Origin: a virus
Length of the DNA stretch: 16,740 bases
IMG/VR virus record: IMGVR_UViG_3300045988_050264
Location: 1-16,740 of that record
Reading direction: 5' to 3' (one strand)
How positions within the stretch are numbered: position 1 is the stretch's first letter; each line of letters starts with the position of its first letter. The notes below the pieces were generated by a model, which was given only the letters and a program-made list of their open reading frames with translations, ran no database searches and was not told where the DNA came from. Below are positions 126 to 16,702 of the stretch, piece by piece. The translations under genes and the position numbers were made by a program.

Positions 126-154
126 TTGACAAAAAGGGGTGTACATGGTATACT
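126..154 (+). promoter_or_regulatory. Early promoter P1 (sigma-A type, extended -10)
   Basis: TTGACA (126-131), 17-nt spacer ending TGG, TATACT (149-154). A-rich tract upstream (106-121). Predicted start near 160. Confidence 0.8.
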
Positions 155-160
155 AAGCAT

Positions 161-494
161 GTAAACAAGAGAGGGAAACAAGAGGGCCGGCCGGGTGACC
201 GCCCACCGTCAAACCAGCGGGACGCCGACAGCGTCAAGGTGTGAACCTTGAAAAGTGAATACTGGACATAAACAAGCCCCACGGCACAAGCGCACCGGAC
301 AGCGCGTCAGCTACGCATATCAGCGGCCACGCGTTGCCTGGTCTGTTAGTGGGAAGTCGCTCCATTTTGTTGAAAAGGTGAAAGCCCCGCTGCGCATTGC
401 GAAAGCAGAACCGCAGCTGTTCGCCGGGTGAATTTGCGATAGCCCGGACGGTGAATGACGAGTCTTTGAAAATTAAGACGAAACACGCGCAAGT
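161..494 (+). ncRNA. ORF-free, GC-rich, hairpin-dense RNA downstream of P1; candidate packaging RNA (pRNA) or structured leader
   Basis: No SD-preceded ORF between P1 and the ATG at 556. nt 181-240 are ~72% GC by my count. Local helices: GACGC/GCGTC 221-235; CAAGGT-GTGA-ACCTTG 235-250 (GNRA loop); a ~12-bp bulged helix 295-307/329-341; CC(A)UUUU-GUUG-AAAAGG 362-378; GCTGCG/CGCAGC 389-417 enclosing UGC-GAAA-GCA; CCGGG/CCCGG 424-447. Direct repeat AAACAAGAG(AG)GG at 163-186. Function not demonstrated. Confidence 0.4.
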
Positions 495-545
495 CACGGC
501 AGAAATGCCGTGTCGGGTAACACCAAAATTCAACGACAAAAGGAG
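495..545 (+). repeat. Early intergenic hairpin+leader module, copy A
   Basis: CACGGCA-GAAA-TGCCGTG hairpin (495-512) overlapping the core GTGTCGGGTAACACCAAAATTCAACGACAAAAGGAG (510-545). ATG at 556. Confidence 0.85.
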
Positions 546-555
546 TACAAAAACT

Positions 556-816
556 ATGGCAAGACAGAGAATGATTACTCGCACTATCACTTTCCAGGAA
601 ACCGAGATTATGTGCCTGGACATTTCCACCGCACAGGCGCATGTTTCGACATTTTGCACGGCAAGCCCCTCGCCCCTGACGCTTGACCAGCTCAAGGCCC
701 GGTATGATACCGACACCAACAAGCTGGTTGCCATTCTCAACAACCGCACCACGGAACAGGTGTACGGCATGAGCGAGGATGATTTCATGGCACACGCACA
801 TATCATCACGCGCTAA
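556..816 (+). CDS. phi29 p6-like dsDNA-binding (histone-like) protein, paralogue 1 (86 aa)
   Basis: ATG at 556 lies 10 nt after AAAGGAG. The track ORF 397-816 is trimmed because its N-terminus reads through the non-coding repeat. MARQRMITRTI...CLDI...DTDT.K.V.I...GMSEDDFMAHA aligns with the product of 2710-3024. It also resembles my recollection of phi29 p6 (REITKTT ... YELPVEKFLEVA). Confidence 0.75.
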   Translation: MARQRMITRTITFQETEIMCLDISTAQAHVSTFCTASPSPLTLDQLKARYDTDTNKLVAILNNRTTEQVYGMSEDDFMAHAHIITR

Positions 817-822
817 TGACCA

Positions 823-875
823 GGCCCCAGCAATGGGGCCGTGTCGGGTAACACCAAATTCAACGACAAAAGGAG
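823..875 (+). repeat. Early intergenic hairpin+leader module, copy B
   Basis: GGCCCC-AGCAAT-GGGGCC (823-840) followed by GTGTCGGGTAACACCAAATTCAACGACAAAAGGAG (841-875). Starts 6 nt after the stop at 816. ATG at 885. Confidence 0.9.
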
Positions 876-884
876 AAACAAAAA

Positions 885-1223
885 ATGGACATCAATCAGC
901 GTGAAATTAATGAAGCATGCCGCGCATATTATGACGCCGCAATGACGGAGCGCGGTCAAATGCCGTGGGTTCCGGATAATAAGCCCTCGCCGTGGAAAAG
1001 ATTGCGTAGCTGTAGCGCAGATGTGTTAGAGACTCCCAACTTTTTCATTCTTCGGTCCTACAACACCGTTGTTGCTGTCATTGACAAGGATACTGGAAGC
1101 ACCTGGGATGTACTCCGCATGGTCTACGGCTACACAGCCACCAGCGCACAGCACATTACAAAGTTTTCCCACGACTACGGCAACGGCAATCGCTACACAT
1201 GGCGCGAGATTCCGAACCGCTGA
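885..1223 (+). CDS. Hypothetical early protein (112 aa)
   Basis: ORF with AAAGGAG 9 nt upstream. Flanked by repeat copies B and C. No family recognised. Confidence 0.8.
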   Translation: MDINQREINEACRAYYDAAMTERGQMPWVPDNKPSPWKRLRSCSADVLETPNFFILRSYNTVVAVIDKDTGSTWDVLRMVYGYTATSAQHITKFSHDYGNGNRYTWREIPNR

Positions 1224-1228
1224 CGAAT

Positions 1229-1282
1229 GGCCCCAGCAATGGGGGCCGTGTCGGGTAACACCAAATTCAACTACAAAAGGAG
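1229..1282 (+). repeat. Early intergenic hairpin+leader module, copy C
   Basis: GGCCCC-AGCAAT(G)-GGGGCC (1229-1247) followed by the core with one substitution (CAACTACAAAAGGAG). Starts 5 nt after the stop at 1223. Confidence 0.9.
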
Positions 1283-1290
1283 AAACAAAC

Positions 1291-1488
1291 ATGAACAACG
1301 AACAGAAGGTTATGCGCGCACGTGCAATAGCAGATTTTACCGCCGAAATGCTGGACGAGATTTTCTTCATCGAAAGACTCAACGCAGAAATTGACGCAGA
1401 TACGCCTGACTATGAAAAGGCGCGCCGCCGCGAATTGCTTGAAAAGGCAAAGATTATGGGCGAGGTTATCGCATGGCTTGTGAAATGA
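1291..1488 (+). CDS. Hypothetical early protein (65 aa, predicted helical)
   Basis: ATG at 1291 lies 8 nt after AAAGGAG. Track ORF 1069-1488 is trimmed because its upstream part overlaps gene 885-1223 and reads through the repeat. Confidence 0.75.
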   Translation: MNNEQKVMRARAIADFTAEMLDEIFFIERLNAEIDADTPDYEKARRRELLEKAKIMGEVIAWLVK

Positions 1489-1577
1489 TTTTGGTGCATA
1501 TTATTCTGCCGCTGTCACCGCTGATTGCGATGTCATTTGCTTGTCTGGTAGAATGGCTAATCAAGCGCCGCCGCTGA
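1485..1577 (+). CDS. Putative 30-aa hydrophobic peptide MILVHIILPLSPLIAMSFACLVEWLIKRRR (below the ORF-track cutoff)
   Basis: ATGA start/stop overlap with the preceding gene (ATG 1485-1487, TGA 1486-1488). One predicted TM helix with a KRRR anchor. Its stop (1575-1577) sits 6 nt before repeat hairpin D, the same spacing seen after the other genes. No SD of its own. Confidence 0.45.
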   Translation: MILVHIILPLSPLIAMSFACLVEWLIKRRR

Positions 1578-1583
1578 CCACCT

Positions 1584-1635
1584 GGCCCCAGCAATGGGGC
1601 CGTGTCGGGTAACACCAAATTCAACGACAAAGGGG
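1584..1635 (+). repeat. Early intergenic hairpin+leader module, copy D
   Basis: GGCCCC-AGCAAT-GGGGCC (1584-1601) followed by the core, ending ACAAAGGGG. ATG at 1643. Confidence 0.9.
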
Positions 1636-1642
1636 TAATATT

Positions 1643-1969
1643 ATGGACTACAACATTAAGGACCTGTATTCAAGCACGATGTCAGCGCTAATGGCCGATT
1701 ATGGCAAGATGCTCCAGACCACCACGGTATATTCTGACTTCTACAATGTCACCGTTGAGCGCACAACAAACTTTACCGTTTTGTGGGATGGTCAAGATTC
1801 AATGACACTGCTTGCCTTGTACGACTGGAATAATCACATTGCGCTTGACCTGTCTGCTAATGCAGATGATTTTACTAACGGTGAAAATAAAATCATTATC
1901 GAAAATTTCTTCTGGTTTGCAGACGAAGTAATTTCTGTCCCGCAGGAGGTGATGGAATGCCGCGAGTAA
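1643..1969 (+). CDS. Hypothetical strongly acidic early protein (108 aa)
   Basis: ORF preceded by AAAGGGG. By my count 11 D + 7 E vs 3 K + 2 R, net about -13. Confidence 0.8.
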   Translation: MDYNIKDLYSSTMSALMADYGKMLQTTTVYSDFYNVTVERTTNFTVLWDGQDSMTLLALYDWNNHIALDLSANADDFTNGENKIIIENFFWFADEVISVPQEVMECRE

Positions 1970-2223
1970 AAATGAATCAAGCGGATATGCTTGACGCTGG
2001 AATTACATGGTTTGCTTCACGCAACACAACGAATTTTGACGGTCTATATGGACGTGCGTATTTTCTCACGCATAATCTGACAAAAACTCAGCGCAAGGCA
2101 GTCACACGCTGGAAGAATACAGCAATCCGCAACACCAGCATACCAGGTGAAAAAGGCAAGCCAAGCAAATGCCACATTGTAATTATCTATGACAAAATCA
2201 TTCCGCGCGAAAATGTGGAATAA
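1957..2223 (+). CDS. Hypothetical basic early protein (88 aa)
   Basis: ATG at 1957 preceded by AGGAGGTG. 13-nt overlap with the upstream gene. Stop lies 4 nt before repeat hairpin E. Confidence 0.75.
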   Translation: MPRVKMNQADMLDAGITWFASRNTTNFDGLYGRAYFLTHNLTKTQRKAVTRWKNTAIRNTSIPGEKGKPSKCHIVIIYDKIIPRENVE

Positions 2224-2227
2224 CACT

Positions 2228-2277
2228 GGGCCTCGCGGCCCTGTGTCGGGTAACACCAAATTTAACAACAAAAGGAG
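2228..2277 (+). repeat. Early intergenic hairpin+leader module, copy E
   Basis: GGGCC-TCGC-GGCCC (2228-2241) followed by GTGTCGGGTAACACCAAATTTAACAACAAAAGGAG (2243-2277; two substitutions). ATG at 2288. Confidence 0.9.
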
Positions 2278-2287
2278 AAACAAAATT

Positions 2288-2506
2288 ATGATTACATTGC
2301 GCGCAAAAAAGAACTACACACCGGACGACATTCGTGCTCTCATAGAAGTCATTGAAATAGGCTCTGAGAATATGAAATGTGCAGAAACGTGTGAACGCTG
2401 TACCCATAGCACAGCTTGCGCCGACCTGTGCCGGTTTTACAACTATCTGTATGGCGTTTTGGATTCCTGGAGAAGTGATGATTTCTATCCCATGCCGAAA
2501 ATTTGA
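2288..2506 (+). CDS. Hypothetical Cys-rich early protein (72 aa)
   Basis: ATG at 2288 lies 10 nt after AAAGGAG. Track ORF 2189-2506 is trimmed. Contains CAETCERCTHSTACADLC. Confidence 0.75.
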   Translation: MITLRAKKNYTPDDIRALIEVIEIGSENMKCAETCERCTHSTACADLCRFYNYLYGVLDSWRSDDFYPMPKI

Positions 2507-2527: not shown

Positions 2528-2557
2528 TTGACAGCTTACCGGTCCGCATGGTATAAT
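2528..2557 (+). promoter_or_regulatory. Promoter P2 of the replication operon (extended -10)
   Basis: TTGACA (2528-2533), 18-nt spacer ending TGG, TATAAT (2552-2557). AT-rich inverted repeat GTTAAA-AA-TTTAAC just upstream (2512-2525). Confidence 0.8.
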
Positions 2558-2563
2558 AAGGCG

Positions 2564-2709
2564 TAGCCGCTGATGGCGTTACTCTCTTTCTCTCCTATGT
2601 GTTCCCGGCATTGCCGGGTTCACGGGCCACGGAAGTCCGCACCTGCTGGGGCAGTACCAGCATGGCCCTGTCATATCAACAAACAGTGTAACACAAGGAG
2701 GTACAACAA
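2564..2709 (+). promoter_or_regulatory. Structured ~145-nt 5' leader of the replication operon
   Basis: CU-rich tract CTCTCTTTCTCTCCT (2582-2596). Hairpin CCCGGC-ATT-GCCGGG (2604-2618). Three-way junction: GGGCCA/TGGCCC (2624-2629/2663-2668) enclosing CGG-AAGU-CCG and GCTGG-GGCAGTA-CCAGC. Then an A/C-rich linker and AAGGAGG (2695-2701). Confidence 0.45.
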
Positions 2710-3024
2710 ATGGCAAGAAAACCCATGGTAACCCGCACCATCAAGGTGACCCAGGCATGCGTCCTGTGTCTGGACATTGAGCAGGGCGAACCCTGCACCA
2801 GAGAGGTCACCCTCTCCCGAACCTACAAGAACGACGAAGCAATCCTCAAGGCCGCAAAGGCCGTCGTTGACACGGATACCCTCAAGGCTGTGTCTATCTC
2901 GAAGTCCTGGGTGGAGGAAAAGCTACTGGGTATGCCCGAAGATTTTTTCATCGCCCACGCCGTGGACATTGTTCGCCGCAAGCCTGACGCAGAGATTCCC
3001 AAGCAGCCCAGTGACCCCCAGTGA
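2710..3024 (+). CDS. phi29 p6-like dsDNA-binding protein, paralogue 2 (104 aa)
   Basis: Strong SD AAGGAGG. First gene of a p6-like, p5-like, TP, DNAP block, which matches phi29 gene order 6-5-(4)-3-2. Shares MAR..M.TRTI / CLDI / DTDT / GM.ED.F.AHA with 556-816. Same length as I recall for phi29 p6 (~104 aa). Confidence 0.8.
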   Translation: MARKPMVTRTIKVTQACVLCLDIEQGEPCTREVTLSRTYKNDEAILKAAKAVVDTDTLKAVSISKSWVEEKLLGMPEDFFIAHAVDIVRRKPDAEIPKQPSDPQ

Positions 3025-3134: not shown

Positions 3135-3509
3135 ATGGAAGGTTACAACGTCACCATCGCTAAGTCCAGCAAGGAGCTGACCCACAAGGAACGTGTACGC
3201 ATGAAGGACACCACCAACGCGCTAAGCCTGGACGATGTTACCAAGGACGGCCCTGTCCTGATTGACCTGGATTTTTACGCAGTGATGGACGTACACAACG
3301 AGAAGTCCGAGAGCATCGACTACACTGTTTGCATTCTCGTTGACAAGGCAGGCACCAAGTATCGCACAGGCTCCCCCAGCTTCATGACTGCCCTGGACGA
3401 AATCATGGTGGACATGGCTGACTGTGATGAAGCCTGGCAGTTGGAAGTTTCCCGCCGTCCCAGCAAGAACTATAAAGGAAAAGAGTTCCTGACGTGTTCC
3501 GTGGTGTAA
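3135..3509 (+). CDS. phi29 p5-like single-stranded DNA-binding protein (124 aa)
   Basis: SD AAAAGGAG. Sits between the p6-like and TP genes. Same length as phi29 p5 as I recall it (124 aa). The C-terminal half (YTVCILVDKAGTKYRTGSPSFMTALDEI...KGKEFLTCSVV) parallels the recalled phi29 p5 (TTIFAADGSLYSAISKTVAEAASDLI...KGNVFFSLQL). Confidence 0.65.
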   Translation: MEGYNVTIAKSSKELTHKERVRMKDTTNALSLDDVTKDGPVLIDLDFYAVMDVHNEKSESIDYTVCILVDKAGTKYRTGSPSFMTALDEIMVDMADCDEAWQLEVSRRPSKNYKGKEFLTCSVV

Positions 3510-3518
3510 CGTAACGCC

Positions 3519-3556
3519 AGCGCCCATCATGGGATTCCGTGGTGGGCGCTATTTTC
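3519..3556 (+). terminator. Intrinsic terminator/attenuator between the SSB-like and TP genes
   Basis: 14-bp stem 3519-3532/3537-3550 (12 Watson-Crick pairs + 2 G.U) with GAUU loop, followed by ATTTTC. There is no room for a promoter before the TP SD at 3561. Confidence 0.6.
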
Positions 3557-3574
3557 ATATAGGAGGAAAGAACC

Positions 3575-4396: not shown

Positions 4397-6364
4397 ATGG
4401 CAACACGCAAGAATCGCGTGTTTGTCGGAGACTTTGAAACAACCGTGTACAAGGGCCAGGACCACACCGAAGTGTGGGCGGCGGCCTGTGTAGAGCTGTT
4501 CACAGAGGACGTTTCACTGTTCCATTCTATCGGCGAAATGTGGGACTTTCTCAAGGGACTGCGTGAGAACGTCATATGTTACTTTCACAATCTCAAGTTT
4601 GACGGTTCATTCTGGCTGTCCTATTTCTTGATAAATCTTGGCTACAAGCAAGCGTTTGAACAGTTCGGTGAAAACGACTTTGTGCGCATGAAGAACAAAG
4701 AAATGCCAAATAACAGTGTTAGTTACAGCATTTCAGGCATGGGCCAGTGGTATGACATAACCGTCAAGGTGAATGGGCATATTATCGAATTTAGGGACAG
4801 CTTGAAGCTACTGCCGTTTAGCGTTAAGGCAATCGGAAAGAGCTTTGAGACTAAGCACAAGAAGCTGGACATGGAATACACCGGCCTACGGTACGCAGGT
4901 TGTCCAATAACCCCTGAAGAACAGGAGTACATTAAGAATGACGTTCTTGTTGTAAAGGAAGCGCTGGAAATAATGTTCACTGAGGGGCACAAGAAACTTA
5001 CCATTGGAAGCTGTTGTTTGGCAGAATACAAGAAGTCCATAGGGAAAAAAGCCTACGCCGCAATGTTCCCGGACCTCTACCAAATGCCATTGGACAAATC
5101 ATTCGGTTCGGACAACGCAGGGCAATATGTTAATCGTTCGTACCGTGGCGGCTGGTGCTATTTAGCCCGTGGCAAGGAACAGAAGTTGTTCCACAATGGT
5201 GTAACAGCAGACGTTAACTCCCTGTACCCCTCCATGATGTCAAGCGAGTCCCTTAACAAATATCCAATTGGAGAACCTCACTTTTGGTCAGGCGACTTCA
5301 TACCAGACGAAGCAAAACGCGCAACGTCATACTACTTTGTGCGGTTCAAGACACGGTTCTACATTCGTCCCGGCAAACTGCCGTTCATACAGCTAAAGAA
5401 CAGCATGAGTTATCGCGCAAATGAGATGCTTGAAACCAGTGACCATTACAACAAGGAGGACGGAAAGTATTATCCAGTGTATTATGACCTTGATGGTAAC
5501 CTAAAACCAGCAATAGTAGAACTCACAATGACCATGACAGACTTTACACTTTTCAAAGAGCATTATGAGCTTGTTGATTTCCGCATTTTAGACGGATGCT
5601 GGTTCGACTCCGCTGTAGGAATCTTTGACCAGTACATTGATAAATACAAGAAAATCAAGATGGAGTCTAAGGGTGCAAAACGTCAGCTTGCCAAACTGTT
5701 CCTTAATAACCTGTACGGCAAGATGGCTTCATCACCAAACAGCGACTTCAAGATTGCATTCACCAAGGAGGACAAGACAATCGGCTTCCGCACCATTCGC
5801 GCAAACGACAAAACCCCAGGCTACATACCAGTGGGCAGTGCAATAACCAGCTACGCCAGAAACTTCACCATCCGAGCCGCACAAGCAAACTACTACGGCC
5901 CAGACAAACCAGGGTTTATCTATGCCGACACCGACTCAATCCATTGCGACCTTGCACCTGACCAGCTAAAAGGCATTAAGGTACACAATAAGAACTTCTG
6001 TTTTTGGGACCTTGAAAGCACCTGGGACGAAGGCTGGTTTGTACGCCAAAAGACCTACATCGAGCACGTCATAGCAGAAGAACTGGAACCTGTAGACACG
6101 CCATACTACAACGTCAAGTGTGCGGGTATGCCGAAGCAGTGCAAGGACCTATTTCTCATGGCGGTAAACGGTTTCACAGACGAAGAAGCGGCTGAACACA
6201 CAGAGATGGAACAGGCATTCTTGTACACAGACAAAGAGCGCACACAGCACCGTTCACTGACAGTTCAAGACTTCACCGTCGGCCTTGCGATTCCAGGCAA
6301 GCTACTCCCGAAGCGTATACCAGGCGGGGTTCTTCTTGTTGACAGCGTTTATGAAATGAGGTAA
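4397..6364 (+). CDS. Protein-primed family-B DNA polymerase (655 aa)
   Basis: Exo I GDFETT, Exo II HNLKFDGSF, Exo III YIKNDVLVV. Motif A DVNSLYPS, motif B KLFLNNLYGK, motif C YADTDSIH (5921-5938), KxY motif RQKTYIE. Confidence 0.95.
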   Translation: MATRKNRVFVGDFETTVYKGQDHTEVWAAACVELFTEDVSLFHSIGEMWDFLKGLRENVICYFHNLKFDGSFWLSYFLINLGYKQAFEQFGENDFVRMKNKEMPNNSVSYSISGMGQWYDITVKVNGHIIEFRDSLKLLPFSVKAIGKSFETKHKKLDMEYTGLRYAGCPITPEEQEYIKNDVLVVKEALEIMFTEGHKKLTIGSCCLAEYKKSIGKKAYAAMFPDLYQMPLDKSFGSDNAGQYVNRSYRGGWCYLARGKEQKLFHNGVTADVNSLYPSMMSSESLNKYPIGEPHFWSGDFIPDEAKRATSYYFVRFKTRFYIRPGKLPFIQLKNSMSYRANEMLETSDHYNKEDGKYYPVYYDLDGNLKPAIVELTMTMTDFTLFKEHYELVDFRILDGCWFDSAVGIFDQYIDKYKKIKMESKGAKRQLAKLFLNNLYGKMASSPNSDFKIAFTKEDKTIGFRTIRANDKTPGYIPVGSAITSYARNFTIRAAQANYYGPDKPGFIYADTDSIHCDLAPDQLKGIKVHNKNFCFWDLESTWDEGWFVRQKTYIEHVIAEELEPVDTPYYNVKCAGMPKQCKDLFLMAVNGFTDEEAAEHTEMEQAFLYTDKERTQHRSLTVQDFTVGLAIPGKLLPKRIPGGVLLVDSVYEMR

Positions 6365-6819: not shown

Positions 6820-7872
6820 TTAATATGACAGCGCCTTTAACACAGCTTCCTTGCAACGCAGGTCTTTGAACCGGAAACATCCACGCTCAAAATACCAGCG
6901 CATATTTGTGAGAAACAGGTCATTCCTTTTAAGCATCACATAGTTTAATCCGTGGTCCTCTGTTGTTACTGTGATTTTACCCTTGAACGTGCTGTCAGGG
7001 CGATTGTCGCAATAGATAATGCCAAGTTCAGGAAACTCGCGCAATGCGTACTCTGTTCCGTTATACCGAAGTGTTGCAAGATAACGTCCTCTACCAGTTG
7101 GCTGGTCAATGAATGCCTTGCTATCATTCAAGTACACACATTGCGCACTGTATGCAACATAGCTGTTACGCGAAAATGCGCGATTAAAGCCGCTTTGTTT
7201 TTGCGCTTCACTTGCAGACTCGACAAAGCCCTGTTCAAGGACAAATCCGTCACCACGTAGGAACCTGGTATCATCGTTCAGGCGTTCGCTGATTCCCATC
7301 TCCACATAGTACGGATTGATGATGGATACTGGGTTAGCGCACATATACACCGGAACATAACGAATTTGTTCTCCGTTACCACGTGCAATAGACGTATGAA
7401 TCGACAGGAACTTCCTAATTTCGTCGTTGCAATAGTGGTTTGTCTCACTCTGAAACTCGTCAAAGAACATCCGCTTCACGTCGCTGAATAGGTGGCTGTA
7501 TTTTTTCAGCTGGTCAGCGCTGTTGAGAGATACGGCATATCCGCAACACTCATCATCCCAGAAAAGTTCGTGGAAGATACCACTTGCGCGGCGTTTGCTG
7601 GTGAACGTAACGCCGTCAAAGAACAACCTGCCAATGTCCTTAAAGAACTTGTCGGCACAATCGTCCAGTTCATAATTGTAACGATAAACCAGGCAGAATT
7701 TTTCGCGTTTCTTTTTCCACCCATTAGCGCATAGTCTACCAAAGAAAGTGGTTTTACCGCCGGTTCTGTTGGTGGTACACATATAAATCTCAGGACGGTT
7801 TCCGTTGATATCCATAAGAGACAACAGTTTTGCACCGTCATAATACTTTCCCACACTTTCACCTACTTTCAA
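6820..7872 (-). CDS. DNA encapsidation (packaging) ATPase, phi29 gp16-like (350 aa)
   Basis: Walker A TNRTGGKTT, Walker B RMFFDEF, and an ANPVSIINPYY motif as in recalled gp16 (SNAVSVVNPYF). The start is uncertain. One option is TTG at 7872, only 4 nt after AGGAG. The other is an in-frame GTG at 7854, 5 nt after AGGTG. Confidence 0.9.
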   Translation of the reverse strand: MKVGESVGKYYDGAKLLSLMDINGNRPEIYMCTTNRTGGKTTFFGRLCANGWKKKREKFCLVYRYNYELDDCADKFFKDIGRLFFDGVTFTSKRRASGIFHELFWDDECCGYAVSLNSADQLKKYSHLFSDVKRMFFDEFQSETNHYCNDEIRKFLSIHTSIARGNGEQIRYVPVYMCANPVSIINPYYVEMGISERLNDDTRFLRGDGFVLEQGFVESASEAQKQSGFNRAFSRNSYVAYSAQCVYLNDSKAFIDQPTGRGRYLATLRYNGTEYALREFPELGIIYCDNRPDSTFKGKITVTTEDHGLNYVMLKRNDLFLTNMRWYFERGCFRFKDLRCKEAVLKALSY

Positions 7873-7886
7873 AGTTCTCCTATTAG

Positions 7887-7915
7887 ATTATACCATAGCC
7901 CTTGACAAATGTCAA
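7887..7915 (-). promoter_or_regulatory. Promoter P4 for the packaging ATPase (extended -10)
   Basis: Minus strand reads TTGACA (7915-7910), 17-nt spacer ending TGG, TATAAT (7892-7887). The predicted start near 7880 would put the AGGAG at the very 5' end of the mRNA. Confidence 0.7.
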
Positions 7916-7930
7916 GCCATATGCTATAAT
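7902..7930 (+). promoter_or_regulatory. Promoter P3 for the lysis + morphogenesis operon (extended -10)
   Basis: TTGACA (7902-7907), 17-nt spacer ending TGC, TATAAT (7925-7930). Confidence 0.85.
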
Positions 7931-8168: not shown

Positions 8169-8836
8169 TGGCTACTCCCCGCATTTTCGTTTCCCCTTCA
8201 GACCAGTTTAACAACATCTATGCCTATGGCAACACTACTGAAGGCGACCAGTGCAAGAAGATTGCAAGCGCCCTTGTCTCGGCTCTGCTTCGCAACAAGT
8301 TTGAAGTCAAAATGATGCAGGGGCCGGACATGGCAAGTGTTGTAAACGCTTCCAACAACTGGTCCGCAGACCTCCACGTCTGTGTTCACACTAACGCATA
8401 CAACGGAACTGTTGCTGGAACCAGAGTATACGCATATGACAAGATCAAGCCTGGCTACAAGGCCGCGCTCAAAGTCTTTAACAGGCTGGCCCCGATTACG
8501 CCCGGCACCAGCGAGTCCGTACAGATCAACAAGACCTGGTATGAGATGGTAAACACCTGGGCGCCCTGTGTGTACTGCGAATGTGAGTTCCACGACAACC
8601 CCACCAGCGCAAAGTGGATTGTGGAGCACACTAACGATATCGGCGAAGCCATTGCCGCCGGTATTTGCGACTACTTTGGCGTGAAGTACGTTGAACCTAT
8701 CAAACCCGTTGCGCCTGATAAAGATGACACCCTGTATCGCGTACAGGTTGGCGCTTTTAAGGTGCGCGAGAACGCAGAGCGTTACCGTGACAAACTCCGC
8801 GACATGGGTATCTCCGCCTTTATTGTGAAGGTGTAA
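8168..8836 (+). CDS. N-acetylmuramoyl-L-alanine amidase endolysin with C-terminal SPOR domain (222 aa)
   Basis: TAATG overlap with the holin gene. Amidase_3-like ADLHVCVHTNAYNG and CECEFHDN. The C-terminal YRVQVGAFKVRENAERYRDKLRDMGISAFIVKV is a typical SPOR repeat. Confidence 0.85.
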   Translation: MATPRIFVSPSDQFNNIYAYGNTTEGDQCKKIASALVSALLRNKFEVKMMQGPDMASVVNASNNWSADLHVCVHTNAYNGTVAGTRVYAYDKIKPGYKAALKVFNRLAPITPGTSESVQINKTWYEMVNTWAPCVYCECEFHDNPTSAKWIVEHTNDIGEAIAAGICDYFGVKYVEPIKPVAPDKDDTLYRVQVGAFKVRENAERYRDKLRDMGISAFIVKV

Positions 8837-16655: not shown

Positions 16656-16702
16656 GTGCCAGTGTTTGTATTATTTATTGTGCAAATGCTGGCACTTTTA
16701 TT
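16656..16702 (+). terminator. Intrinsic terminator of the late operon
   Basis: GTGCCAGTGTTTG / CAAATGCTGGCAC 13-bp stem (2 G.U pairs) with a 14-nt loop, followed by TTTTATT. Only 12 nt separate it from the right ITR. Confidence 0.8.

Follow-up and report, generated by a model that had tools for sequence, protein, structure and literature searches.

In T4-type phages, promoter-early stem-loop (PeSL) cassettes combine a strong sigma-70 promoter with a stem-loop terminator (Arbiol et al. 2010, PMC2839356; Comeau et al. 2014, PMC4122927). In the cip-cel operon of Ruminiclostridium cellulolyticum, experiments showed that GC-rich intergenic stem-loops without a U-tract direct cleavage by an endoribonuclease, for the most part immediately 3′ of the stem, and stabilise the products on either side; RNase Y is the suspected enzyme (PMC10311766). 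Here we describe an element with likenesses to both, found in the IMG/VR virus record IMGVR_UViG_3300045988_050264, a stretch of 16,740 nucleotides that was analysed at its full length (hereafter, the window). Five copies of a module made of a hairpin, a short motif and a translation leader lie between the genes of its early operon, and copies are present in 14 related genomes. The element is previously undescribed, real and selected, and is best seen as a promoter-less counterpart of the PeSL cassettes. Our favoured reading, to which we give a probability of about 0.5 from the comparative analysis, is that the modules are intercistronic RNA punctuation, that is, a cleavage or stability signal joined to a standard translation leader.

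The likeness to PeSLs is one of composition, place and plasticity. PeSLs and modules alike are short, composite and repeated in the gaps between genes of an early, plastic region rich in ORFans; in each, a stop codon is followed by a GC-rich stem-loop and then by the Shine-Dalgarno sequence (SD) and start of the next gene; and for each, the insertions, deletions and reordering of small cassettes in close relatives are explained by recombination among the copies (PMC2839356, PMC4122927). However, the modules contain neither a promoter nor a U-tract and carry instead, where the 3′ arm of the hairpin ends, a conserved motif that is single-stranded. One upstream promoter, P1, serves all module cassettes, and the setting is a 16.7-kb phi29-like podophage of a Gram-positive (clostridial) host. 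As the defining sigma-70-type promoter is missing, we do not count the modules as PeSLs. With the cip-cel signals they share GC-rich, mostly perfect stem-loops that lack a U-tract and lie between the genes of one polycistron, in a clostridial setting (PMC10311766). The stems GGCCCC/GGGGCC, GGGCC/GGCCC and CACGGCA/UGCCGUG are of the cip-cel type I, which is mostly perfect, has GC pairs at top and bottom and is not followed by a U-tract. But the cip-cel stem-loops are not repeats and have no sequence specificity beyond their GC pairs (PMC10311766), whereas the phage module has an 8-12-nt motif that is invariant over 57 copies, and the module as a whole is repeated, leader and SD included. In addition, cleavage is experimentally shown for the former and is a proposal for the phage module.

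The window is a complete linear genome of 16,740 bp with 33-bp inverted terminal repeats at its ends. It encodes a protein-primed type B DNA polymerase (4397-6364), a p6-like double-stranded DNA (dsDNA)-binding protein and a protein resembling the phi29-type single-stranded DNA-binding protein (SSB), the last by a weak match under the Pfam cut-off. Judged by the polymerase, its nearest cultured relatives are the Clostridium symbiosum phages CS229P1-3, at 59% identity, and other relatives come from human faeces. The modules all lie within the operon bounded by the promoters P1 and P2, and there are none elsewhere in the genome. The features of this region are as follows.

126-154, plus strand: P1, a near-consensus early promoter of the sigma-A type, TTGACA-17-TATACT with TG (11/12 match, extended -10), conserved in the relative L142; drives the operon with all five modules.
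162-494, plus strand: non-coding P1 leader; a 3′ hairpin at 462-479 (GUCUU-loop-AAGAC) is followed by GAAACAC, directly before module A.
495-555, plus strand: module A; hairpin 495-512, CACGGCA-GAAA-UGCCGUG; motif GUGUCGGG at 510-517; A-rich leader; SD 542-545; ATG 556.
556-816, plus strand: cassette 1; 86-aa p6-like dsDNA-binding paralogue, family F1 (phrog_6370, E 1.1e-5).
823-884, plus strand: module B; upstream stop 814-816; hairpin 823-840, GGCCCC-AGCAAU-GGGGCC (folding z -3.1); motif 841-848; core 841-875; ATG 885.
885-1223, plus strand: cassette 2; 112-aa ORFan, family F2 (phrog_4264, unknown function).
1229-1290, plus strand: module C; hairpin 1229-1247; motif 1248-1255; core 1248-1282; ATG 1291.
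1291-1577, plus strand: cassette 3; 65-aa gene (1291-1488) overlapping a 34-aa hydrophobic open reading frame (ORF; 1473-1577), no module between them.
1579-1642, plus strand: module D; hairpin 1584-1601, extended by CAC (1579-1581)/GUG (1602-1604); motif 1602-1609; core 1602-1635; weaker SD (GGGG); ATG 1643.
1643-2223, plus strand: cassette 4; 108-aa gene (1643-1969, missing in the relatives L142 and L139) overlapping an 88-aa gene (1957-2223).
2223-2287, plus strand: module E; hairpin 2228-2241, GGGCC-UCGC-GGCCC, extended by ACAC (2223-2226)/GUGU (2243-2246) and so overlapping the stop codon; motif 2243-2250; core 2243-2277; ATG 2288.
2288-2506, plus strand: cassette 5; 72-aa Cys-rich ORFan, family F3, the final gene of the P1 operon.
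2528-2557, plus strand: P2 promoter (12/12 consensus); opens the replication-gene operon; right-hand border of the modular region.

Within a module the order is stop codon, 4-6 nt (in B-E), GC-rich hairpin, GUGUCGGGUAACACC, an A-rich stretch, SD, 7-10 nt and ATG. The cores start at 510, 841, 1248, 1602 and 2243, every copy on the plus strand. A search with the 35-nt core, allowing up to three mismatches, gave four matches against 0.00 expected in 200 dinucleotide shuffles; copy A, set apart by a 1-nt insertion in the core, is the fifth. A covariance model built from the clade finds exactly the same five sites in the window and none on the minus strand. The initial annotation, made from the letters of the window, had placed five copies here, with 4-6 nt between stop and hairpin in B-E, 7-10 nt between SD and ATG and no U-tract, and all of this holds. 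Two of its details need correction. The core was said to vary by 0-2 substitutions or a 1-nt indel per copy, which fails for copy D (a 1-nt deletion plus a substitution, or three mismatches when aligned ungapped), and the hairpins of B, C and D were said to be identical, which fails for copy C, where the 3′ arm has an additional G.

Each module occupies the whole of its intercistronic gap. All five of the five non-overlapping junctions in the P1 operon carry one, and the two junctions inside cassettes are overlapping stop/start pairs without a module. Folding predictions leave the A-rich stretch single-stranded in four copies (A, B, C and E), but in D some of the leader and the SD are drawn into base pairs. 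At the foot of the hairpin in A, D and E, CAC/ACAC pairs with the opening 3-4 nt of the core (GUG/GUGU). A mini-hairpin internal to the core, GTGT-N6-ACAC, was considered and rejected, as the ACAC is neither kept nor compensated in the relatives L140 and L141 or in the other subclades. The 34-aa ORF of cassette 3 (MILVHIILPLSPLIAMSFACLVEWLIKRRR) is strongly hydrophobic and conserved in all clade-1 relatives, and may encode a small membrane peptide.

An exact 18-mer from the core led to six IMG/VR contigs, and a search with the neighbouring p6-like protein led to 38 related genomes of 13-21 kb. These were scanned on both strands for a hairpin followed by G[TC]GT[CA].G[GA] and then by an SD and start codon. 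The scan gave 58 raw matches, from which one dubious match in L167 was left out. The remaining 57 modules are all on the coding strand, with 0 on the opposite strand, and lie in 14 genomes of the related set, which form one DNA-polymerase clade with branches 65-70% identical and with GC contents of 0.33-0.51. They come in four sequence flavours: GUGUCGGGUAAC in the group of the window, GUGUCGGAGAA, CCGUGUCAGGUG (of which L159 has seven copies) and GCGUCUGGUACGUUCAAAC, whose stems of 12-17 bp are every one different. The annotation had named an absence of related copies or of covariation in relatives as an outcome that would refute the element; the relatives, with these 57 copies, clearly show otherwise.

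The hairpins have turned over while the way in which they join the motif has stayed. There are 47 distinct hairpin sequences among the 57 copies, with a median stem of 9 bp (range 4-17 bp), and per-copy folding gives a mean z of -3.35 against dinucleotide shuffles. Even so, the last paired base falls at -2 to +4 of motif position 1 in 56/57 copies. The 3′ flank G[U/C]GUC.GG is common to all copies, and positions outside the search pattern are conserved too, namely a CC that precedes the motif, a (U)AA that follows it and, at about 15 nt downstream, CAAA. The gap between stop and hairpin is -2 to 17 nt in most copies in which it could be assigned, with a single outlier at 37 nt. Between motif and SD there are anything from 19 to 56 nt over the 57 copies, and in L141 one copy stands about 110 nt before the next start, so that the motif goes with the hairpin and not with the ribosome site. 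Since motif and hairpin-motif junction are constant across lineages at 65-70% identity and GC contents of 0.33-0.51, in which the stems have been replaced, both the hairpin structure and the motif sequence are selected. This bears out for the hairpin what had been proposed from the three stem types in the window. For the motif, the comparison of sequences indicates purifying selection, beyond homogenisation within genomes. Selection across such divergent lineages also rules out recent duplication of an SD-containing leader, which had been the fallback explanation.

Two modules of L141 (640-700, 1053-1186) deserve mention. One has a variant motif, GUGUUGGG. In another, ahead of a 147-aa gene, some 85 nt stand in place of the leader and duplicate the final part of the P1 leader (cgcgccaacagata..agagcgcg), which looks like a cassette insertion that brought its own upstream sequence.

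The modules are also where cassettes are exchanged. With modules as letters and gene families as F numbers, the order in the window is A-F1 (p6-like)-B-F2 (112 aa)-C-F4/F5-D-F9/F6-E-F3, and that in L142 is A-F2-B-F1-C-F4/F5-D-F6-E-F3. The blocks of these two genomes are 89-97% identical in DNA, with the order of F1 and F2 reversed and the junctions inside modules. L139 is without F2 and F9, and its F1 is divergent. Close relatives differ at module junctions in whether they have the 108-aa and 112-aa genes, and the subclades HP2 and HP4 display gain, loss, duplication and reordering at modules. Recombination at the repeats thus reorders, removes and adds cassettes between relatives. The suggestion in the initial annotation that the modules are homology blocks for cassette exchange is directly supported, as cassettes of about 90% identity are permuted or missing with their junctions in modules. 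The leader variants CAACGAC and CAATAAC follow the genome and not the downstream gene, which points to conversion between copies within a genome. The 45-65-nt repeats are portable homology, with cassette exchange as a side effect, and the copies within a genome evolve in concert.

It is conceivable that there is nothing more to the modules than this, and that they are duplicated SD leaders, kept alike by gene conversion, which offer homology for exchange, in the manner of T4 PeSLs or of the boundary sequences in lambdoid phages, or persist as selfish repeats, with the hairpin as a relic terminator. The permutations and indels at modules would follow directly, as would the homogenisation of leader variants within genomes, a sign of gene conversion, and the fact that the nearest cultured relatives manage without modules. 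However, concerted evolution acts within a genome and cannot account for an 8-nt motif and a hairpin-motif junction that stay the same in subclades whose polymerases are 65-70% identical, and a different structured RNA in the same slot of the sister clade (described below) argues for a function of that slot in expression. We consider it quite unlikely that the modules are a recombination scaffold and nothing else.

One family in the shuffled region has a fixed counterpart. The window encodes two p6-like paralogues (556-816 and 2710-3024) with the common N-terminus MAR..M.TRTI. The early copy, at 556-816, sits in a P1 cassette that shuffles; it is missing from subclade 2 and divergent in L139. 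The copy at 2710-3024 has a constant place at the head of the P2 operon.

With regard to transcription, the promoter scan found four sigma-A-type consensus promoters in the window, P1 at 126, P2 at 2528 and a divergent pair at 7902(+)/7915(-), and there are two canonical terminators with hairpin and U-tract, at 3519-3550 and 16656-16695. In the modules the scan found no sigma-70 promoter, bar one weak 9/12 match in copy E, so that the earlier claim that they lack -35 and -10 hexamers stands for A-D and needs that proviso for E. The core could still be read by an alternative sigma factor or a phage-modified polymerase, giving each cassette a transcription start of its own, with the hairpin ending the upstream unit; the modules would then be true PeSL-type elements with non-canonical promoters. 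Their composite layout of stem-loop, conserved block and SD resembles that of PeSLs, and an asymmetric motif about 30 nt upstream of an SD is reasonably placed for this. But sigma-70-type hexamers are absent, the core does not fit the consensus of sigma-54, sigma-D or extracytoplasmic function (ECF) promoters, the would-be -35 region is a hairpin whose sequence is not conserved, and no recognisable RNA polymerase or sigma factor was found among the proteins of the 16.7-kb genome. The comparison with these promoter classes, as well as with rrn/lambda boxA, CsrA sites and an SD-like standby site, which were likewise dismissed, was made by eye. A promoter function seems to us highly improbable.

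Termination fares little better. No U-tract follows the hairpins in the window, where GUGUCGGGUAAC comes next, or in any of the four subclades, whereas the same genome has the two U-tract terminators named above; intrinsic terminators were rejected for this reason. A softer version holds that the modules are partial terminators or pause sites without a U-tract, which would step down P1 transcription into a 5′-to-3′ gradient of expression. GC-rich hairpins immediately past stop codons would suit such attenuators, T4-type PeSL stem-loops act as terminators or attenuators (PMC2839356), and one of the cip-cel stem-loops also terminates (PMC10311766). That stem-loop, however, is the one with a U-rich 3′ side (PMC10311766), and no copy in the four subclades has a U-tract. 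Five terminators in series would moreover starve the distal cassettes, and the conserved 3′ motif would be left unexplained. We therefore hold attenuation to be very unlikely.

Two further sites in the window concern promoters and terminators outside the modules. At 7887-7930, two divergent 12/12 consensus promoters overlap, one directed at the minus-strand gene 6820-7872, a packaging ATPase by analogy with CS229P2, and the other at the late genes. This is likely an early/late switch region. At 3494-3560 there is a weak Rfam match to ctRNA_pGA1 (31 bits, under the gathering score), which coincides with the terminator at 3519-3550 after the SSB gene and is probably merely that terminator hairpin.

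Database searches returned no described counterpart. No Rfam 15 family overlaps a module at E<=1 over the whole window or at E<=10 over 150-2720, and no related element was found in GenBank phages by megablast of the whole window or by blastn of one module. In 185,579 cellular species genomes the 18-mer has 11 matches, all by chance, without hairpin or SD context and apparently within coding sequence, and there is thus no evidence for a host-derived element. In metagenomes, the 14-mer GTGTCGGGTAACAC gave single chance matches without module context among the matches listed. Hairpins, stem-loops and intergenic elements go unmentioned in a 2024 review of phi29-like phages. The Rfam, GenBank and review results agree with the annotation, which had recognised no described element here.

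A motif conserved this strictly might be the binding site of a protein. In cluster A mycobacteriophages such as L5, stoperators are DNA sites for the prophage repressor, with no associated hairpin. The modules resemble stoperators in being many copies of a short asymmetric motif, in one orientation to transcription and in short intergenic gaps; they differ in having a hairpin and in occurring in phages without a recognisable repressor or integrase. As a shared operator, G[T/C]GTC.GG beside the hairpin would bind one phage or host protein that co-regulates all early cassettes, either on RNA, as a translational or stability regulator of the T4 RegA type, or on DNA, as an oriented roadblock array that shuts off the P1 operon in the manner of stoperators. 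Strict conservation of such a motif, in a single orientation and in every intergenic gap, fits this idea and is not predicted by the structure-only signals of cip-cel, and its persistence across very different GC contents is as expected of a site with a co-evolving partner. A RegA-like operator, however, would lie at the SD/AUG or at a fixed distance from it, and motif-to-SD distances of 19-56 nt or more make occlusion of the ribosome site unlikely. The translational operator put forward in the initial annotation is weakened accordingly. Nor is there an obvious binding partner among the early proteins: no family is common to all module-bearing genomes, and Pfam, PHROGs, NCBIfam and PDB gave no nuclease or RNA-binding signature and no recognisable nucleic-acid-binding domain in these ORFans, the p6-like ones excepted. 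A binding array for the p6-like proteins had also been suggested, and no support for it was found. A pure DNA operator would have no need of an adjacent hairpin with pairing kept through 47 sequence variants. Altogether, an operator appears unlikely.

At the RNA level, the early annotation had drawn an analogy with the RNase III sites of T7 early mRNA. Such sites are likewise several related hairpins between the cistrons of an early polycistron made by the host polymerase, and a protective 3′ hairpin is left there after cleavage. They differ in that the stems of the phage module are too short and its conserved part is single-stranded. RNase III requires about 20 bp (about two helical turns) of irregular duplex RNA, against stems of 6-9 bp in the window and 4-17 bp (median 9) in the clade, and an RNase III site was rejected. 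The broader proposal of processing or stability sites is the one we favour, by inference, and the T7 analogy that came with it falls away.

The relatives without modules offer a second view of the same slot. tRNA-like elements are classical RNase P/Z processing signals, and mascRNA is an RNase P/Z-processed tRNA mimic. In a sister clade, the place between the stop codon and the leader/SD is taken by a minihelix, made of a 7-bp acceptor-like stem, a linker of 8-16 nt and a T-arm with the T-loop UUCAAUU or UGCAAGU. Downstream of the minihelix come UUU and a small hairpin whose AAUAG loop is conserved, and then an A-rich leader and the SD. The pattern scan found 51 minihelices on the plus strand against 5 on the minus strand, with at least 11 different acceptor stems. 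They are present as follows.

L166, 499-594, 888-985 and 1143-1237: sister-clade minihelices; also present in L148, L152-L155, L158, L160, L161, L164 and L169.

The three minihelices of L166 give weak, sub-threshold matches to Rfam mascRNA (RF01684). Hairpin modules and intercistronic minihelices are mutually exclusive between genomes. In mitochondrial polycistrons, in the t-elements of plant mitochondria (PMC1920247) and in the MALAT1 mascRNA (RF01684), structured RNAs between units recruit housekeeping endonucleases, and the sister-clade minihelices look like tRNA-type punctuation of a phage early operon of this kind, in exactly the slot of the modules. The modules of the window are alike in position and presumed role, not in family. 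ARAGORN, regular-expression and Rfam searches gave no tRNA or tRNA-like match in them, and they have no T-loop and no acceptor stem, so that assignment was rejected.

The leader of the P2 operon tells a similar story. Most relatives have a minihelix or a true tRNA there: a canonical minihelix of acceptor stem and T-arm in most, including CS229P2 (L176:1917), and true tRNA genes in L149, L170 and L172-L175. In the P2 leader of the window (2558-2709, before the second p6-like gene), an acceptor-like stem at 2624-2668 (GGGCCA/UGGCCC) is similar in shape; inside it are a small hairpin and another of 6 bp whose loop has 7 nt. The tRNA-like elements in the sister-clade slot and in P2 leaders suggest that processing of early transcripts is a general design of this phage group.

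More distant relatives have repeats of their own. L171 (419-2930) has 4-5 copies of a double-hairpin module followed by AGCTGAATTAACAGCC, L149 (81-800) has a 3-copy repeat around CACCTACATGGT, and L153 (124-500) has a consensus promoter in three tandem copies. In the late region of L178 the palindrome TGTTTCACGTGAAAC occurs four times, at 8298, 10436, 12083 and 13901.

The P1 leader, which precedes module A, is a further structured RNA. It is about 330 nt long and 92% identical to that of L142. The anchor AATTAAGACGAAACAC of its 3′ hairpin is retained in all four subclades, as is the hairpin itself together with GAAACAC, and the stem shows compensatory changes across subclades (GUAUU/AAUAC, GUAUC/GAUAC and GUCGU/ACGAC). 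Rfam gave no match for the leader (162-494). This RNA, which is on the same transcript as the early genes, may serve in packaging, like the packaging RNA (pRNA), or as another functional RNA.

RNA punctuation of the P1 early mRNA brings these features together as follows. P1 would yield one long transcript, made of the conserved structured leader RNA and five gene cassettes. At each cassette boundary the RNA would fold into a stable GC-rich hairpin a few nt past the upstream stop, with the conserved (A)CAC...GUG(U)C.GG(U)AA at the base of the hairpin and in its 3′ flank. A host endoribonuclease, of which RNase Y would be the likeliest in a clostridial host, may read this signal of structure plus sequence and cut at the hairpin or just 3′ of it. 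The hairpin would then shield the upstream product from 3′ exonucleases, and the downstream product would begin with an unstructured, A-rich standard leader and a strong SD that allow translation independent of context. Expression of every cassette would thus be insulated from its neighbours, and the leader RNA would be set free. Three lines converge on this reading and are the reason that we favour it: the anatomy of the module, the slot in the sister clade and the precedent of cip-cel. The anatomy is that of an element co-oriented with transcription, which abuts the stop codon, is followed by an unstructured leader and is preceded in the operon by the structured P1 leader RNA. If that RNA is functional by itself, it needs a defined 3′ end.

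We are highly confident of the anatomy and conservation of the modules and of their part in cassette shuffling, and several points weigh against carrying this over to the mechanism. That the modules act as RNA, that they are cleaved and by which enzyme is what we infer. Only 6% of the hairpin pairs are G-U and nearly all are Watson-Crick, with equal stability on either strand, which leaves room for a structure at the DNA level. In a covariance-model alignment of 26 clade-1 copies, 68.8% of cells were paired and a slide by -1 gave a similar figure, as stems and loops differ in length and register; per-copy folding with shuffles was used in place of a fixed-column count of covariation. The argument from the sister clade is one of position and not of homology. 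The first 8 kb of six genomes contain no complementary partner of the motif in cis that beats shuffled motifs, and the early proteins show no signature of a nuclease or of RNA binding. In CS229P1-3 the modules are absent and the early genes tightly packed, and the element is therefore dispensable for this type of phage. Lastly, the conserved 3′ motif is not explained by a signal of the cip-cel kind, which is unspecific in sequence, and could be a protein-binding site instead.

A more specific form of RNA punctuation is conceivable for this clade of phi29-like gut phages. A hitherto unknown signal might consist of a stable hairpin of whatever sequence, with CAC/GUG as its closing pairs and UC.GG(U)AA behind it. 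A dedicated endoribonuclease activity would read it and divide one early transcript into insulated cassettes of a plug-and-play kind, and the signal would be functionally interchangeable with the minihelices of the sister clade. We put this forward tentatively, as a possibility with somewhat less than even odds. If true, it would be the first described mRNA processing in the style of tRNA punctuation in bacteriophages, with two alternative marks for the same boundary.

From a biological perspective, the modules give very small phages a concrete mechanism for maintaining fast-evolving accessory genes, as cassettes with portable homology on each of their borders can be permuted, lost and gained while expression is left undisturbed. 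They also widen the PeSL idea from the 170-kb T4-type myoviruses to the 16-kb protein-primed podoviruses of Gram-positive gut bacteria, in a promoter-less form. If they are cleavage or stability signals, the combination of hairpin, recognition motif and standard leader would be a compact natural insulator part, making the expression of small genes independent of their neighbours, as synthetic biology does with RiboJ, Csy4 sites and tRNA arrays. The strictly conserved motif would provide a handle on the rule by which an RNase recognises its sites in Clostridia, and the minihelices of the sister clade make tRNA-type punctuation of phage mRNAs directly testable.

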